A DNA stretch of 64,000 nt from Acidimicrobiia bacterium (GTDB lineage: Bacteria; Actinomycetota; Acidimicrobiia; Spongiisociales; ZC4RG35): contig DATABS010000071.1 of NCBI GenBank assembly GCA_036259475.1, positions 3,913 through 67,912 on the forward strand, written 5' to 3'. Positions 4,761-51,789 of the stretch are shown here, piece by piece (within the stretch, counting starts at the first letter, position 1; every line of letters starts with the position of its first letter). The translations under genes and the position numbers were made by a program. Under the pieces are notes generated by a model, which did no database searches, had not been told where the DNA came from, and saw only the letters and a program-made list of their open reading frames with translations.

Positions 4761-5533
4761 GAGAGCTTCTCTCCTTGACGGAGCGCCTCACGCACTTCTG
4801 TGAGAAGCTCGAAGAATCTGGGACTCTCTCGTATCTCGAATTGACGGGGTTGAGGCAGGTCGATGTCGATGCGGTGGGTGATGCGCCCGGGTCGCGACGA
4901 CATCACGATCGTCCTGGTGGACAAGAAGACGGCTTCGGGGATGGAATGGGTCACGAACACGACCGTTGTCCCCGTGTCTCTCCAGATCCGCATCAACTCC
5001 TGTTGCATCGACTCACGAGTCATCTCGTCGAGGGCCCCAAACGGCTCATCCATCAGCAGAAGCGGCGGACGCTGTCCAAGGGCACGGGCGATCGCCACCC
5101 GTTGCTGCATGCCGCCTGAGAGCTGCCACGGGTAGTGGTCGACGAAGTCACTCAGACCGACCATCGCCAGCAATTCTTCGGCTCTCGAGCGACGGCCGTG
5201 GGCGTCGACGTCCGCCAGTTCCAAGGGCAACTCGACGTTGCGCAGGACTGTCCGCCACTCCAGAAGGGTGGCGCTCTGGAAGGCGATGCCGTAGTCGCCG
5301 TCGAGGCGCGCCTGGTGAGGGTCCTTGCCGTTGACGATCAGCCGCCCGGCGCTGGGATGGAGCAGTTCGCCTATCAGCCGAAGCAGGGTCGACTTCCCGC
5401 AGCCGGACGGTCCGATGAGAGACACGAACTCGCCCGGTTCGATTTGGAGGTCGATATCGGAGAGGGCCTCGACCGTGCCGGAGCGCCCCGAGAACGTCTT
5501 GCTCAATTTCTGGGCATCGACGATGAAGTCCAT
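4757..5533 (-). CDS. ABC transporter ATP-binding protein (SsuB/TauB-like)
   Basis: Walker A GPSGCGKST, the ABC signature LSGGMQQRVAIARAL and Walker B LLLMDEPFGALD are all present. Confidence 0.92.
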   Translation of the reverse strand: MDFIVDAQKLSKTFSGRSGTVEALSDIDLQIEPGEFVSLIGPSGCGKSTLLRLIGELLHPSAGRLIVNGKDPHQARLDGDYGIAFQSATLLEWRTVLRNVELPLELADVDAHGRRSRAEELLAMVGLSDFVDHYPWQLSGGMQQRVAIARALGQRPPLLLMDEPFGALDEMTRESMQQELMRIWRDTGTTVVFVTHSIPEAVFLSTRTIVMSSRPGRITHRIDIDLPQPRQFEIRESPRFFELLTEVREALRQGEKLS

Positions 5534-8262: not shown

Positions 8263-9417
8263 TCAGAGTGCCTCGGCGGCCCGCCGCAGATCGTCAGCGG
8301 CGTCGGTTTGCTCCCAGGGGAAGAGCTCGCGGCCGAAATGCCCGTAGGCAGTGGTCGGCCGGTAGATCGGTCGGCGAAGATCGAGCCGCGAGATGATCGC
8401 ACCCGGCCGAAACTCGAAGTATTCGTGGACGAGGGTGGAGAGCTTCGCCGGGTCGATGACCGACGTGCCGAAGGTCTCCACGAACACCGAAAACGGCTCC
8501 GGCCGACCGATGGCATAGGCGAGCTGTAGCTCGCAACGGGTGGCCAGGCCGGACGCCACGATGTTCTTGGCGGCCCATCGGGCGGCATAGGCCGCCGACC
8601 GGTCGACTTTGGACGGATCCTTGCCCGAGAACGCCCCGCCACCGTGGCGGGCATACCCGCCGTAGGTATCGACGATGATCTTTCGGCCCGTCAAGCCGGT
8701 GTCGGCGTGCGGTCCGCCGATCTCGAACTTGCCCGTCGGATTGAAGAAGTAGTCGGCGTCCTGGGCCAGCATCCCGTCGGGAATGGTGGGAACAACGACC
8801 TCGTTCCACACCTCCTTGGCCATCGTTTCCTGGTCCATGTCAGCTTCGTGGTGCGCCGAGATGAGCACCGAGGTGACTGCCACGGGCCGGTCGCCTTCGT
8901 ATCGGACGGTGACCTGGGTCTTGCCGTCGGGACGCAGGTATCCGAGGAGCTCCTGCTTCCGAACGCTCGCCAGCCGCTCGGCCAGCCGGTGGGCGGTGAG
9001 AATCGGCAGCGGCATGAGCTCGGGGGTCTCGTCGACGGCGAAGCCGAACATGATTCCCTGGTCGCCGGCGCCCAACGAATCTAGATCCCCCCGCTCCACT
9101 CCCTGGTTGATGTCGGGCGATTGAGTGTGGGCCAGGACCACGACATCGATGTCATCTGCCCGGAAATGAGTGTCGTCCACGTAGCCCAGTTCGGCGATCG
9201 TCCGTCGAGCAACAGCCTCGAAGTCGGGCTCGTGCTCCGAGTTGAGCTCCCCGGCGATGACCGCCTTGCCTGTGGTCACGAGCGTTTCGCACGCCACTTT
9301 GCCCAGCGCGTCGTGGGCCAGGACGTCGTCGAGAACGGCGTCACTCACGGCGTCGGCCACCTTGTCGGGATGCCCCTCGGTGACGGACTCAGACGAGAAG
9401 TACCATCGATGGGCCAT
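8263..9417 (-). CDS. metK: S-adenosylmethionine synthetase
   Basis: SESVTEGHPDKVAD, GAGDQG and the GGGAFSGKD motifs are present. Confidence 0.95.
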   Translation of the reverse strand: MAHRWYFSSESVTEGHPDKVADAVSDAVLDDVLAHDALGKVACETLVTTGKAVIAGELNSEHEPDFEAVARRTIAELGYVDDTHFRADDIDVVVLAHTQSPDINQGVERGDLDSLGAGDQGIMFGFAVDETPELMPLPILTAHRLAERLASVRKQELLGYLRPDGKTQVTVRYEGDRPVAVTSVLISAHHEADMDQETMAKEVWNEVVVPTIPDGMLAQDADYFFNPTGKFEIGGPHADTGLTGRKIIVDTYGGYARHGGGAFSGKDPSKVDRSAAYAARWAAKNIVASGLATRCELQLAYAIGRPEPFSVFVETFGTSVIDPAKLSTLVHEYFEFRPGAIISRLDLRRPIYRPTTAYGHFGRELFPWEQTDAADDLRRAAEAL

Positions 9418-23438: not shown

Positions 23439-23929
23439 ACCGCCAGAACTTCATCGGCGACTGATTCCACCGTCTTGCCGTCGGTCGCCACCGTGGCGTG
23501 GGCCGCTTCCCGGTAGCGAGCCTCCCGCTCTTCCACAAGCGTGCCGAGCCGTTCGACGGGGTCGTCGGCCTGGGCCAGGAGCGGACGGCTCCCGTCCCGT
23601 CCCACCCTTTCGGCCAACGTCGAGGGTGCCGCTGTCAACCACACGACCAGTCCGGACGAACGCATCACATCGATGTTCGTCCGATCGAGAATCGCCCCGC
23701 CGCCCGTGGCCACGACCACCGGCTCACCGGCCGCTGCCGAAGCGATCATCTGGCTCTCGAGGTGGCGAAAGGACTGCTCGCCTTCGTCATCCCAGAGTTC
23801 CGTGATCGACGATTCCGTCACGGATGCCACCAGGAGATCGGTATCGACGAAGTCGAGGCCGAGGTGAGCCGCCACCGCCATCCCGACAGTGGTCTTGCCG
23901 GAGCCCATCATCCCGATGAGCCACAGCAT
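23423..23929 (-). CDS. aroK: shikimate kinase
   Basis: P-loop GMMGSGKTTVG in a 168-aa protein. Confidence 0.9.
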   Translation of the reverse strand: MLWLIGMMGSGKTTVGMAVAAHLGLDFVDTDLLVASVTESSITELWDDEGEQSFRHLESQMIASAAAGEPVVVATGGGAILDRTNIDVMRSSGLVVWLTAAPSTLAERVGRDGSRPLLAQADDPVERLGTLVEEREARYREAAHATVATDGKTVESVADEVLAVWNAS

Positions 23930-25086
23930 CAGAACTCGGCCAAACGGGCCCGGTAGCGTTCGGCGGCAGCCACGACGTCGTCGACGGTGTCGCCGCCGAA
24001 CTTGCGCATCGTCTCGTCCGCCAGCACGTAGGCCACCATCTGCTCACACACCACCCCCGCCCGCGGCACGGCACAGGTGTCGGAGCGCTCGAAAAACGCC
24101 TTGGCCCCCTCTTTGGAGTCGACGTCCACCGTGTCCAGGGAGCGCATGACGGTCGAGATCGGCTTCATGGCGGCGCGCAGGCTGAGAACTCCCCCGATCG
24201 TGATGCCGCCTTCGGTGCCGCCGGCGCGGGCGGTCTGCCGGGTGAACGATGCACCGTCGTGGTAGATCTCGTCATGGGCCTGGCTGCCCCGGCTGCGTGC
24301 CTGGCGGAATCCGTCTCCCACCTCGACTCCTTTGATCGCCTGGATGGACATGAGCGCGTGAGCCAGCCGTCCGTCGATCTTGCGGTCCCAGTGGACGTGA
24401 CTTCCCAAACCGGGGGGAACGCCGTAGGCGAGGATCTCGATGACTCCTCCGAGTGTGTCGCGGCTTTCCCGTGCTCCCCGGATCTCGGCTTCCATCTGAG
24501 CCGTGCTGGCGGGGTCGAAGCAGCGGACGGAAGAGGCGTCGATGGTTCCCAGGTCAGAAGGCTCCGGTCGAGGCATGTCCTCGGGGGTCCGAACGGTACC
24601 GATCTCGACGACGTGGCTGAGGACGGACATGTCGAGGTGGGCGATCAGCAGCTTCGACAGGTATCCCACGACGGTGCGGGCTGCCGTCTCCCGCGCCGAC
24701 GCCCGCTCCAGGATGTTGCGGGCATCGTGCGTGTCGTACTTCAGCATTCCGGCGAGGTCGGCGTGTCCCGGACGGGGCGTCGTCATTCGCCGTTTGGCGG
24801 TGCCGGCCCCCGGGTTCATCTCCTCGGACCATTTCGTCTCGTACTCGGTGTTGCGGATCAGCACGGCCACCGGTGATCCGAGGCTGCGCCCGTGGCGAAC
24901 ACCGGCGAGGATCTCGATCCGGTCCTGCTCGAGGCCCATCCGTGGGCTGCGACCGTAACCCAATCGGCGTCGCGCCAATTCGGCCGCCAACCCGTCGGAA
25001 TCGAACTCGAGGCCGGCCGGGAGCCCCTCGATGGTGGCGACGAGGCCGGGGCCGTGGGATTCGCCCGCTGTCAGGAACCGCAGCAC
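23929..25086 (-). CDS. aroC: chorismate synthase
   Basis: LRFLTAGESHGPGLVA gives the canonical N-terminus. The GTG start is at 25086; the upstream 58 codons of the ORF run into the repeat region and are not credible. Confidence 0.9.
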   Translation of the reverse strand: MLRFLTAGESHGPGLVATIEGLPAGLEFDSDGLAAELARRRLGYGRSPRMGLEQDRIEILAGVRHGRSLGSPVAVLIRNTEYETKWSEEMNPGAGTAKRRMTTPRPGHADLAGMLKYDTHDARNILERASARETAARTVVGYLSKLLIAHLDMSVLSHVVEIGTVRTPEDMPRPEPSDLGTIDASSVRCFDPASTAQMEAEIRGARESRDTLGGVIEILAYGVPPGLGSHVHWDRKIDGRLAHALMSIQAIKGVEVGDGFRQARSRGSQAHDEIYHDGASFTRQTARAGGTEGGITIGGVLSLRAAMKPISTVMRSLDTVDVDSKEGAKAFFERSDTCAVPRAGVVCEQMVAYVLADETMRKFGGDTVDDVVAAAERYRARLAEF

Positions 25087-25099
25087 GTCGACGATGCTA

Positions 25100-25340
25100 C
25101 CGACCACCGGTTGTGGCGCCGCATTCGGCGGACCGCTCGAGCGGCGGCGGGGCGTGGAACCCAGGGTTCTAGTCCTGCCTGGCGGTGTCCCGGCCCACGG
25201 TTCGCTCGGCGGGCGGGGGTTGGCGGCGGTCCGTGGAACCCAGGGCTCTAGGCCCCGCATAACGGGGACTCCCGCCCACGATCCGCTCGGCGCGGCTGTG
25301 GCTGGCGCCGGAGCCTGGAACCCAGGGATCTAGGCACCGT
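25100..25340. repeat. three tandem ~80-bp degenerate repeats (MIRU-like), each ending in the core GTGGAACCCAGGGNTCTAG
   Basis: Core copies lie at 25154-25172, 25233-25251 and 25316-25334, with 79 and 83 bp periods. The preceding parts of each unit also align (cccacgNtNcgctcggcg...). The first core contains the perfect palindrome GAACCCAGGGTTC. The units generate three overlapping artefactual ORFs ending WNPG(F/L/I). Confidence 0.8.
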
Positions 25341-25369: not shown

Positions 25370-26089
25370 TCAGAGCAGCATCTGAACCAGGCGCTCTCCG
25401 CCGATGATGGATATCCAGGTGCCGACGATCATCGGCGGCCCGTAGGGAATCTCCGACTTGGCTCGGGCGCTACCGCCCAGAACGGCCGCCAATGCGACCA
25501 GCCCTCCCACGGCGGCGGTTGCCATCCCGGCCAGCAACAGCCTGTCCCATCCCAAGAAACCGGTGAACAACCCCAGCGAAACCGCCAGCTTCACGTCCCC
25601 GAAACCGAATCCTCCTCGGGCCACCAGATAGACCATTCCGAAGAACCCGGCATAGGCGAGGGCTCCCAGGAGCGCTCTGGGAAAAGAAGAAAGCGTGCCA
25701 TCCGCTACGGCGCCCAACATCAGAAGGCCTGCGAGCAGCGGCGTGCCGGGATACGTGATCCGATTCGGGATCCGCTTGTGGTCGACGTCGGTCAGGAAAA
25801 GGGCGACCGTCATGGCGGCGAAACCCAGATACGGGATCAGTACCCAGACCGGACCCAACGCCATCGCGATCAGACCACTGAGGATGCTGGTGACCAGGGC
25901 GGTCGCAATCGCCCGCGTGATTCTCAGACCGCAGGACGAACACGAAGCCAGCAGCGAGTTCGGTGCGCCGCAACGACGACAGACTCCCGCCCCCACGCCA
26001 AACGGGAGATCGGCTCCCGCCTGGACGGCGACGTGGTGGATCAGAGGACCGGCGAGCAGCCCGGCGACAGCCGAGAGGGCGACGTGCAC
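25370..26089 (-). CDS. type IV prepilin peptidase (A24 family)
   Basis: An N-terminal CxxC...CxxC zinc-binding region is followed by a polytopic peptidase A24 domain (GFGDVKL). Confidence 0.85.
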   Translation of the reverse strand: MHVALSAVAGLLAGPLIHHVAVQAGADLPFGVGAGVCRRCGAPNSLLASCSSCGLRITRAIATALVTSILSGLIAMALGPVWVLIPYLGFAAMTVALFLTDVDHKRIPNRITYPGTPLLAGLLMLGAVADGTLSSFPRALLGALAYAGFFGMVYLVARGGFGFGDVKLAVSLGLFTGFLGWDRLLLAGMATAAVGGLVALAAVLGGSARAKSEIPYGPPMIVGTWISIIGGERLVQMLL

Positions 26090-48763: not shown

Positions 48764-49645
48764 TTACCAGCCCCTGCTCGCCAGTCGCTCCGACTCGGCC
48801 AGCCGCTCGATCTCGATGCCCGACATTGCCTCGCCCAGGCCGGTCGACACCTTGGCCACCTTGTCGGCGTCCTCCCAATAGGTGGTGGCCTCGACGATCG
48901 CCCGGGCGTATGCCTCGGGATCCGAGCTCTTGAAGATGCCGGAGCCGACGAAGACGCCGTCGCAGCCCAACGCCATCATTAGGGCGGCGTCGGCCGGTGT
49001 CGCCACACCGCCGGCGGCGAAGTTGACTACCGGCAGCCGGCCCTCTTGGCGGACGAGGCGGACCAGTTCCACGGGCGCTCCGTGGTCGCGGGCGGCCGCC
49101 ATCAGTTGCTCGTCGGTGAGCCGCGTGGCGACGGCGATCTCGTTGTTCATCGTGCGCATGTGTCGGACGGCCTCGACCACGTTTCCTGTCCCGGCCTCAC
49201 CCTTGGTGCGGATCATCGCCGCCCCCTCGCCGATCCGACGCAGCGCCTCACCGAGGTTGCGGGCCCCACACACGAATGGAGTGGTGAAAGCCCACTTGTC
49301 GATGTGATGCTCCTCGTCGGCCGGAGTGAGCACCTCCGACTCGTCGATGTAGTCAACCTCGAGCGCTTCCAGGACCCGCGCTTCGAGAAAGTGGCCGATG
49401 CGGGCCTTCGCCATCACCGGGATGCTGACCGCTTCCTGGATCTCCTGGACCTTGGTGGGATCGGCCATCCGGGCGACGCCGCCCTGGCGGCGAATGTCGG
49501 CCGGTACGCGCTCGAGAGCCATGACAGCCACGGCCCCGGCCTCCTCGGCGATGACTGCCTGCTCGGCGGTGACGACATCCATGATGACGCCGCCCTTGAG
49601 CATCTCGGCCAGGCCTCGCTTGACCAGTTCGGTTCCACGTTCCAC
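48764..49645 (-). CDS. pdxS: pyridoxal 5'-phosphate synthase lyase subunit
   Basis: [11 protein letters not shown] and IPVMAK...[12 protein letters not shown] are present; PdxS is highly conserved. Confidence 0.96.
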
Positions 49646-49647
49646 GG

Positions 49648-50694
49648 TTACTCCTTCCGGGCGTCAATGGTAGTTCGATGACGAATAACCGCCGATTCGT
49701 AAGCTGCCCGGTAGAGACCCAGCACCCGCCCCCAGTCGAAGCGGGAGGCGGCCTCCTGCGCCCGCTCGGCGAGGGTCTCGCGGCGCCCTCCGTCGGTGAG
49801 GAGGAGAGCCACTTCGCGGGATAGCTCCTCGGCGTCTCCGGGTCGCACGAGGACGCCGGTGCCCGCCAGGACGGCGTCGAAAGCCGGAAGATCCGAGGCG
49901 ACGACCGCGCAGCCGGCCGCCATCGCTTCCGCGACCGTGATGCCGAAACTCTCCCCGCCGAGGTTGGGGGCAACCATCACCGACGCCGACGCCAGCGTGG
50001 CTCGCTTCGTCTCTTCGTCGACCCTGCCCCGGAATTCGACGCCCGGCACGGTCCGGCTATGTCCCCGCCCGAGCACCACCAGCTCTGCGTCCGAAACGGT
50101 CCGGCGGATCGCCGACCACGCCGCCAGCAGCACCTCCAGGCCCTTGCGAGGATCGTCGCGACCCAAGAACACGACCCGGTGGGCGCGACGCGGGACCGGT
50201 ACCCGGTAAGAGGGCACGTCGATGGCGTTGGGAATGATCACCGGCTCGCCCCATCGGACGGGCAGTGCTTCTGCCGCCACCGCGCTGGCCGCCGTGACGA
50301 CTGAGTCGCCCAGGAGGCGCCGACCGATTCTGGAAGCGGACCGATACACACGGCGAGTCCAGGGCGCCGGGTCGGCGTGGAATGTGGCCACCGTCGGCTT
50401 GTCGAGGGTGAGAGCGGCCCAGCCGACGACGGGAATGAACGGCTCGTGGACGTGGACGACGTCGACGTCCGCCAGCCGGCGTCGGATGGAGGCGATGGCG
50501 CGGGGGTCGAGGGAGAGCGGCACGCTTGATCGGTTGGCGGACACCGAAACGGTGCGGCCGGTCTCCGGAGTGCCCGGTCCGACCAGCCGCGGGTCGTCGC
50601 CCGCCTCGGCGAGCCGGACGGCCAACTCCCGGCACAGCTGCTGGACGCCTCCGTCGGTGGTGAGGTCATAGGGGCAGACGATCCCGATACGCAT
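49648..50694 (-). CDS. pimA: GT4-family glycosyltransferase, probable phosphatidylinositol mannosyltransferase (PimA-like)
   Basis: It has a GT-B fold with the EX7E-like region ([16 protein letters not shown]). Synteny pgsA-acyltransferase-GT4 matches the actinobacterial PIM locus. Confidence 0.65.
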
Positions 50695-50766
50695 CAGCGC
50701 GCCGTGGCGAGCATGCCGCCGCTCACCGGTGACTCCAGCCCACGGTACGACCGGTGGTTGGCGAGC

Positions 50767-50785
50767 GTGGAACTTTGGGTTCTAG
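50767..50785. repeat. isolated fourth copy of the 19-bp core GTGGAACnnnnGGTTCTAG (here gtggaactttgggttctag) in the pimA upstream region
   Basis: It is identical to the aroC-upstream tandem repeat core except for the 4-nt centre, and lies in a 204-bp spacer 5' of pimA on the minus strand. Confidence 0.7.
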
Positions 50786-50898
50786 ACAACGCCTGAGGGG
50801 TCTGCAGCCCGCGGTTCGTGCCTCGTCTTCGCTGCGAATTGGGCGGGCGTCACACATGAGCTGCGGTCTCGACCTACCGCCGGCTCCTGGCCCCTGAG

Positions 50899-51789
50899 TC
50901 ATGCCTTGTCCGACGGCCAGTTGGGCTGCACGAGGTGCCATTGGCCGGGATCCCGGAGGATCATCTCCTCCAGCTTGGCCGCGATAACCTGAACCGACTC
51001 CGTTGGTGTGGCGCCTTCCGGGAACTCGAGGGGCGGATGGATCACCGCATGGTGGCCCGGTCCGTCCTTGAAGTAGATCGCTACGGGGATGATCGGTGCT
51101 CCGGCGTTCCGGGCGATCGAGACAGGGCCGAGCGGGAGTGTGGTCTCCTCGCCGAAGAACTCGACGCCCACTCCCCGGCCGGAGATGTCGCGGTCGGACA
51201 ACAGGCAGACAGCCTTACCGTCCTTGACCGCCCGCACCAGCTTGGGACCCAACCGACCCTGGCCGGTGAGGATGATCTCGATCCCGAACATGCTCCGCTG
51301 GTGCGTGAACCACTCGGTGATCCGCTGGTTGGCGAGGCGCTCGGCCACCGCCACGACCGTCAGGTCGAGGTGGAGTCCGATCAGGGCGGCGATCTCCCAG
51401 TTACCCAGATGCGGCAGGACCACGATCATTCCCTTCCCCGCCGCCATCGCCTTCTCCAGGTTCTCGATGCCGTCGACGGTCATCGAGGACCACAATGAGG
51501 AGAACCGCCGGGGTCTCACCCAAAAAGACTCGGCCCAATACCGCCCGTAGGACATGAACACCCGGCGGGCGCTCGAGGCGGGCTGGCCGAGGCGTTGCAT
51601 GTGGCGGCGGGCGATCCGGCGACGGGCGGGATCCACGGCGTACCACACGAGACCCCCCCACCTTCCCAGCCGGCGGATGGCCGCCTCCGGCAACATCCCG
51701 AGGAAGCCAACCGCCAGACGCAAGGCAGCGAAGGAGACCCACTGCATCGCCCGTCCAGTTCGCTCCACGGCCGATCGCCGGTCAGACAT
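50899..51789 (-). CDS. lysophospholipid/lauroyl acyltransferase (LPLAT/HtrB-like; PIM acyltransferase-like)
   Basis: It is LpxL/HtrB-family (WAESFW, PHLGNWE), at the position of mycobacterial PatA. Confidence 0.75.
   Translation of the reverse strand: MSDRRSAVERTGRAMQWVSFAALRLAVGFLGMLPEAAIRRLGRWGGLVWYAVDPARRRIARRHMQRLGQPASSARRVFMSYGRYWAESFWVRPRRFSSLWSSMTVDGIENLEKAMAAGKGMIVVLPHLGNWEIAALIGLHLDLTVVAVAERLANQRITEWFTHQRSMFGIEIILTGQGRLGPKLVRAVKDGKAVCLLSDRDISGRGVGVEFFGEETTLPLGPVSIARNAGAPIIPVAIYFKDGPGHHAVIHPPLEFPEGATPTESVQVIAAKLEEMILRDPGQWHLVQPNWPSDKA

Follow-up and report, generated by a model that had tools for sequence, protein, structure and literature searches.

A probable REP/REPIN-like palindromic repeat between genes of uncultured Acidimicrobiia

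The 204-bp spacer between a patA-like and a pimA-like gene of an uncultured member of the Acidimicrobiia contains the 19-bp sequence GTGGAACTTTGGGTTCTAG at positions 50767-50785 of the plus strand, counted along the 64-kb stretch of DNA that we analysed as a whole and refer to as the window. A sequence-only reading had flagged this stretch as gtggaactttgggttctag, which we confirmed on the plus strand at the same positions. The core recurs about 25 kb away in a tandem array between aroC and a peptidase A24 gene. The features at the two loci are as follows (R1 denotes a covariance model of the repeat).

23929-25086, minus strand: aroC (chorismate synthase), 385 aa according to NCBI, downstream of the array
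25143-25339, plus strand: aroC tandem array, period 79-82 bp, 2.5 copies, Tandem Repeats Finder score 222
25153-25209, plus strand: aroC array unit 1, R1 58.5 bits
25232-25290, plus strand: aroC array unit 2, the best preserved in the window, R1 66.8 bits, external profile E 9e-9
25314-25340, plus strand: aroC array unit 3, 5′ arm only (CTGGAACCCAGGGATCTAG), nhmmer E 8.6e-4, model positions 2-26
25370-26089, minus strand: peptidase A24 (prepilin peptidase-like) gene, Pfam PF01478, upstream of the aroC array
49648-50694, minus strand: pimA-like GT4 glycosyltransferase gene, downstream of the 204-bp spacer
50695-50898, no strand: patA-pimA spacer, 204 bp; the flanking genes overlap or lie 9 bp apart in relatives
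50731-50752, plus strand: partial unit, 3′ arm (GACTCCAGCCCACGGTACG), nhmmer, model positions 35-56
50766-50822, plus strand: full repeat unit of the patA-pimA spacer, with 5′ arm, central hairpin and 3′ arm, R1 55.6 bits, E 8.6e-13
50767-50785, plus strand: flagged 19-bp core, 5′ arm of the palindromic unit, predicted to pair with 50804-50819
50899-51789, minus strand: PIM acyltransferase (patA-like) gene, upstream of the spacer, NF005919 at 195.6 bits against a curated NCBIfam cut-off of 209

The gene order pgsA-patA-pimA-pdxS is conserved, with a CDP-alcohol phosphatidyltransferase gene and the patA-like gene preceding the GT4 gene and pdxS following it. JGI names the GT4 homologues phosphatidylinositol alpha-mannosyltransferase, which makes the name pimA reasonable. 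The gene complement of the window looks housekeeping-like by synteny, with a few ORFs scanned against profile libraries. A replication-strand bias was considered: 46 of 54 roughly called ORFs lie on the minus strand, with a GC skew of about zero.

Scanning the window for GTGGAAC-N4-GGTTCTAG with up to two mismatches yielded five matches where 0.03 were expected, a number that none of 100 dinucleotide-preserving shuffles reached. Exact matches occur at 25154 and 50767, and further copies at 25233 (one mismatch) and 25315 (two mismatches). Apart from TTT in place of CCA in the centre, the pimA copy is the same as the first aroC copy. Several claims of the sequence-only reading were borne out by these counts and by the flanking ORFs: the core does recur upstream of aroC and pimA, its copies do differ in their centre, their recurrence exceeds chance, and the pimA copy sits in a 204-bp spacer 5′ of a minus-strand gene, between one minus-strand ORF that ends at 50899 and another that starts at 50694. 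The fifth match (9081-9099, minus strand, two mismatches) falls within a coding ORF and is recognised by no profile of the repeat family, so we regard it as a chance match. Two tandem copies of GTTCCAC (reverse complement GTGGAACGTGGAAC) at 49632-49646, over the first pdxS codons just past the pimA stop, are coding sequence that the repeat model does not detect, and they resemble the core by chance.

A tightened version of the pattern, CSTGGAACNNNGGGNTCTAGNC, still covers all four window copies and has seven matches in 596 Gb of species-representative reference genomes, a collection from which the source genome of the window is absent; four copies in 64 kb are thus an enormous enrichment. The seven matches are scattered over unrelated taxa and their flanks bear no similarity to the family, indicating that the repeat family is lineage-restricted.

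Alignment of the four window copies revealed similarity on both flanks of the core, which proved to be the 5′ arm of a conserved unit of about 50-55 nt that forms an imperfect palindrome. In the aroC spacer, Tandem Repeats Finder reports an 82-bp repeat in 2.5 copies. The composition of the pimA spacer was assessed with profiles that exclude its own sequence. With a profile derived only from two external contigs (L019 and L022), the pimA unit scores E 7e-5 and two aroC units score E 9e-9 and 1e-5. When a second profile was restricted to sequence outside the core and the pimA copy was withheld from it, the best window match other than aroC was at 50730-50753 (E 0.0085), and both flanks of the pimA core were detected. 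Together, these matches show that the pimA spacer begins its repeat sequence with a partial unit (3′ arm at 50731-50752), which a linker of 13 nt joins to a full unit (50766-50822). Searches of the 64-kb window with the nhmmer profile and with covariance model R1 found no further family copies.

Three related lineages known from metagenomes also carry the family, which there neighbours unrelated genes and takes either orientation. When metagenomes were scanned with a pattern fitting all four window copies, 29 contigs were retrieved, among which only L019 and L022, both from one JGI sample, carry family members. Their unit, GTGGAACCCAGGGTTCTAGACCCCCTATAGGGGGGACTCCAGCCCACGGTTCG, is nearly that of the window; it is followed by about 18 variable nucleotides and repeats with a 71-bp period, three times in L019 and twice in L022. 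A further array of four units is found on L038. The L019 array precedes a dimethylglycine-oxidase-like gene and is antisense to it, and the L022 array lies between two genes, in the same orientation as both, with an SDR gene following. Units are thus antisense to the genes in the window and L019 and sense in L022 and L038, and the neighbouring genes (dimethylglycine-oxidase-like, SDR, aroC and pimA) are unrelated in function. All five family loci observed are intergenic. Tandem periods across loci are 64, 70, 71, 79 and 82 bp, none a multiple of three; arrays hold 1.5-4 units, separated by G-rich linkers of 16-30 nt that resemble one another. Three scans of viral contigs returned no family members, and a covariance-model search of about 280 kb of relatives' loci returned no additional copies. 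Three short-read contigs end within arrays (L019 at 4772-4804, L022 at 5267-5337 and L040 at 1-52), as is expected of multi-copy repeats, which suggests that the repeats are multi-copy and assembly-breaking in these lineages.

Two other palindromic sequences in relatives were noted alongside the family. At 2140-2220 of L054, the spacer between a PatA_N-domain gene and a peptidase A24 gene reads CGAACC...CTGGAG...CCCCGCTATAAGGGG...GGTTCCA, which looks like a decayed family copy in reverse orientation, with a score below significance. In L049, a relative with 88% identity, the orthologous aroC spacer carries a different long palindrome, GTGCAGATACACGCGC-TGA-GCGCGGGTATCTGCAC, present at 5330-5440 as two copies in tandem. 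The family model does not detect this palindrome, which is nonetheless similar to the inner hairpin of the L038 units and may belong to a sister sub-family.

We also noted the distribution of the tetranucleotide CTAG. It occurs 29 times in the 64-kb window, four of them inside the repeats; from base composition we estimate that about 200 would be expected in a window of this size. In relatives, peptidase A24 genes end in ...CTAGAC (L049 and L050) and some patA genes end in CTAG (L045 and L047), and these gene ends adjoin the positions at which the window carries arrays. CTAG may be a target or origin motif of the element.

Folded singly, the units give one long imperfect hairpin of about 50 nt on either strand. 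Pairing is predicted between GGAAC at the 5′ end and GGTTC at the 3′ end, and between GGGTT and AGCCC. A loop of 3-5 nt is closed by a central stem, which is CCCCC/GGGGG in units of the window type and CAGCGG/CCGCTG in L038. Fold z-scores are -3.3 for the first L022 unit and -6.7 and -3.6 for two L038 units. In an alignment of 11 copies, 81% of cells pair, compared with 73% in column shuffles (none of 500 reached 81%), and pairing falls to 27-50% when the partners are slid. Compensatory changes occur at seven pairs, most of them in the central stem. Because the copies share a common descent, part of the conserved pairing is inherited and not independently selected. The AAC, G.G.T and GCCC positions are invariant across copies.

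The variable base of GG[T/C]TCTAG distinguishes this long hairpin from the local GAAC..GTTC hairpin that we had considered as the functional unit. In the long-hairpin model this base pairs with G in all 11 copies (U.G in eight, C-G in three), and it breaks the local hairpin in three of the 11. Since the long hairpin fits the variable base better, we rejected the local one and interpret the GAAC-N5-GTTC symmetry as a by-product of the larger palindrome. The strand on which a structure might form was also considered. The pimA unit folds at -22.8 kcal/mol on the plus strand and at -10.8 kcal/mol (z +1.3) in the mRNA sense, which hinted at a strand-specific single-stranded DNA or RNA structure; this candidate was dropped in view of the symmetry of the full set of 11 copies, in which the summed minimum free energies are -210 for the forward strand and -232 for the reverse complement, with 19 G.T and 15 A.C pairs. 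The lack of strand asymmetry over all copies indicates that the element is a palindrome at the DNA level, favouring neither strand. Taken over its full length, the pimA spacer shows no more structure than its shuffles.

Stable predicted hairpins within co-directional gene strings, where the elements are probably transcribed, raise the idea of a selected cis-acting RNA, such as an attenuator, a processing site, an antisense RNA or an mRNA stabiliser, acting on expression across operon junctions. REPs are known to be co-opted in this way. Nevertheless, we consider such a role improbable as the explanation of the family. Rfam searches were negative, at the gathering threshold for the window and at E ≤ 1 for L019 and L022, and we found no tRNA, no T-tract or other intrinsic terminator consensus and no sigma-70-like promoter consensus. 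Furthermore, orientation to the flanking genes varies by locus, folding has no strand preference, the pimA copy is weak on the very strand that would be read as mRNA, with its spacer resembling shuffles, and the element is unconserved at orthologous sites.

This last point can be seen at the patA-pimA junction. In relatives whose PimA is 64-65% identical (L041-L048) the two genes are 9 bp apart, and in P0004 (68%) and P0003 (70%) the patA stop and the pimA start overlap as CTGATG. The expanded spacer occurs only in the window (204 bp) and in the P0002 lineage (436 bp; L038-L040), where it comprises four diverged tandem units of the same repeat family. The P0002 PimA is 81% identical to that of P0003 and 75% to that of P0004, both of which are spacer-less, and 70% to the window protein. 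Relative to pimA, the P0002 units are inverted with respect to those of the window (the best alignment between the two spacers is on the minus strand, E 2.6e-7, compared with 7e-4 on the plus strand). Spacer-less relatives, together with opposite-orientation units at the same junction, show that the element is an insertion into an ancestral tight patA|pimA junction and not a conserved regulatory site. Because P0002 is nearer to spacer-less relatives and its units are inverted, two independent insertions at this junction seem parsimonious, as judged from a tree of one protein. The repeats thereby separate, by 200-440 bp, genes that normally overlap or lie 9 bp apart.

The edges of the two expanded spacers are alike. 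In both insertion-bearing lineages GCATGA ends patA and CTG is kept right before the pimA ATG (window 50896-50901 and 50695-50697; L038 3836-3841 and 4275-4277), and relatives that carry no insertion have a single overlapping CTGATG. The arrangement GCATGA...CTGATG could be a target duplication of 3-4 bp (TGA); alternatively, it could reflect selection for an intact stop and start.

The aroC spacer also varies among relatives. Among those with 86-88% AroC identity, L052 and L054 have short element-free spacers, L056 has a 204-bp spacer that is element-free, and L049 has the different palindromic tandem repeat described above. In the window, a TAGCAT box lies at 25094-25099 on the minus strand, 7 nt before the aroC GTG at 25086, and a TA(G/C)CAT box stands at the same distance from aroC in L049, L050, L052, L054 and L056 (TACCAT in the relatives). 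The box looks like the -10 element of a leaderless aroC transcript, downstream of the array. As it is kept in array-less relatives and lies downstream of the array in the window, this promoter-like signal of aroC is independent of the repeats.

These comparisons bear directly on the proposal of the sequence-only reading that the core is either a transcription-factor operator or a small dispersed repeat family. An operator would require a dimeric regulator that reads GAAC-N5-GTTC and co-regulates aroC, pimA and other genes. The core is indeed partly palindromic and lies 5′ of two genes, and the AAC, G.G.T and GCCC positions do not vary in any copy. The GAAC-N5-GTTC palindrome is present as claimed, but it is only part of a far longer one, and conservation over about 55 nt in tandem units with a period of about 80 bp speaks against an operator. 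Moreover, a scan of the orthologous patA-pimA and aroC spacers found the element absent from most relatives and inverted in another lineage, the neighbouring genes share no function, and the aroC array lies upstream of a -10-like TA(G/C)CAT that array-less relatives retain. The operator reading is therefore unsupported, and we give it a very low probability. The dispersed repeat family, by comparison, is what the homology of about 55 nt, the tandem copies and the occurrence on other contigs beside unrelated genes bear out. The LexA SOS (Cheo) box of Gram-positive bacteria and actinobacteria is GAAC-N4-GTTC; this candidate regulator site was rejected as the spacing here is N5. One consequence is the removal of a false lead: the motif is not a regulator site linking the synthesis of aromatic amino acids with that of phosphatidylinositol mannosides.

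REP, REPIN and BIME elements are mobilised by RAYT Y1-transposases in Proteobacteria; they lie nearly always between genes, at high copy number, and the cognate RAYT is a single-copy gene with repeats on its flanks. The family described here resembles them in being short, intergenic at the loci observed, lineage-specific and predicted to form a hairpin with a covarying centre, and in its tandem arrays and both orientations. A REP is defined as a 5′ GT[A/G]G followed by a palindrome, and REPs are intergenic and usually paired as hairpin-forming REPINs (PMC3686654); GTGG-AACCCAGGGTT fits this definition. Window units 1 and 2 have GTGG with AACCCAGGGTT, as do the pimA unit (with centre TTT), the first L019 unit and both L022 units. 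The tetranucleotide is CTGG in window unit 3 and GTGA in the second and third L019 units, and is unconserved in the diverged L038 copies. REPINs form hairpins whose spacers vary yet stay paired, and they occur in structured tandem arrays of up to five (PMC3337134). The family departs from REPINs in its 3′ arm, which is degenerate, with no clean inverted copy and no terminal CCAC, and from REPs in its short local palindrome, with arms of 5-6 bp. In addition, the possible TGA target duplication at the pimA junction is atypical of HUH transposition and differs in this respect from REP/RAYT systems. In a survey of RAYTs, a passage on taxonomy names Proteobacteria, Clostridia, Cyanobacteria, Chlorobia and Caldilineae; the word 'Actinobacteria' gave no text match in the paper (PMC5581495).

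Taken together, these features make it probable that the flagged motif is the 5′ arm of an imperfect palindromic non-coding repeat of about 50-55 nt that is REP/REPIN-like and confined to a small uncultured clade of Acidimicrobiia. REP/REPIN-like fits as a working model, with two loci known within 64 kb of the host genome. The family is apparently an undescribed example of a well-known kind of bacterial repeat; no paper on intergenic palindromic repeats in Acidimicrobiia turned up in a full-text literature search.

The REP/REPIN-like reading also has to be weighed against mycobacterial interspersed repetitive units, in-place direct tandem repeats of operons whose small ORFs are coupled to the neighbouring genes. 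As described, MIRUs contain ORFs, lack palindromic structure and keep a single orientation to transcription (PMC5056196). The family shares with MIRUs its tandem units in the 40-100-bp range (64-82 bp here), its location in intergenic operon spacers within co-directional gene strings, an actinobacterial host and a copy number that is likely variable. By that description (PMC5056196), it differs in being palindromic, in occurring in both orientations and in not being in-frame, its periods never being multiples of three; the same unit at unlinked loci and independent insertion at one junction do not suit in-place repetition either. We consider a MIRU-type minisatellite highly unlikely. A guess of mycobacterial MIRUs proper, made from aroC, pimA and a GC content of 66%, was discarded, as the host belongs to the Acidimicrobiia and the family lacks three defining features of MIRUs. 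That a short motif recurs by chance, for which only the shortness of the core speaks, has a negligible probability given five matches against 0.03 expected, seven per 596 Gb and homologous flanks.

Other repeat classes were also examined and rejected. CRISPR arrays have repeats of 23-50 nt, unique spacers of similar length and cas genes close by. Here, the conserved part is about 55 nt, the units number two to four, and the linkers are 16-30 nt, G-rich and alike; no cas genes were found among the scanned ORFs (aroC, peptidase A24, DUF4388, patA, pimA and pdxS). Integron attC sites and parS were rejected on geometry.

We propose that the REP/REPIN-like family is non-autonomous DNA of the REP/REPIN/BIME type that is mobile or selfishly expanding. 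New spacers would be reached by means of a trans-acting enzyme that recognises the hairpin, and local amplification, by slippage or unequal recombination, would follow. A RAYT/IS200-like HUH transposase is our leading candidate for this enzyme, though a tentative one; the alternative would be a DDE-type transposase acting on a MITE-like element. Any effects on aroC or pimA expression, for instance through a hairpin in read-through mRNA, would be a by-product and not the cause of the recurrence. MITE-like palindromic repeats include Correia, BOX, RUP and SMAG. Like these, the family consists of small non-autonomous elements with inverted ends that lie between genes, where co-transcription is possible. 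Typical MITEs are single insertions of 100-400 bp with the terminal inverted repeats of a known IS and clear target duplications, whereas the units here are about 55 nt, tandem and associated with no parent IS. A target duplication at the pimA junction, if true, would point to a DDE/MITE mechanism instead of HUH, and a transposase flanked by inverted GTGGAACCCAGGGTTC, if present, would support a REP/RAYT system were it a RAYT and a MITE were it of the DDE type. No RAYT (Y1/HUH) or other transposase was found among the ORFs scanned on L019, on L022 and, for a few ORFs, in the window.

A more specific form of the REPIN-like reading posits, in Acidimicrobiia, a REPIN-like population with its own hairpin-recognising transposase (a RAYT or an enzyme of a new type) and a preference for tight operon junctions. 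This reading, which we regard as rather unlikely, rests partly on the overlapping patA|pimA junction having been hit independently in two lineages and in opposite orientations. If true, it would to our knowledge be the earliest description of a REP/RAYT-type system from this class of Actinomycetota, and insertion into translationally coupled genes could be studied as a natural experiment. The existence of a cognate transposase would likewise extend the host range of REPIN-like systems. The family itself documents hairpin repeats in a poorly studied, uncultured host class, and its arrays could be used as strain markers in the manner of MIRU-VNTR loci.

The metagenome scan also retrieved an unrelated sequence. 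Seven of the 29 matching contigs (L004, L013, L014, L017, L018, L020 and L035) carry the pattern in the promoter or leader region of rpmE, for example at 3615-3636 of L018. These contigs have a GC content of 68-74%, and L004 is titled 'uncultured delta proteobacterium'. No Rfam match was obtained for the leader. All seven share a promoter-like element, TTGAC-17 nt-TAGATC, and a leader of about 70 nt before rpmE, which encodes ribosomal protein L31 (MKEAIHPEYK...), and this leader may be an undescribed L31 leader.
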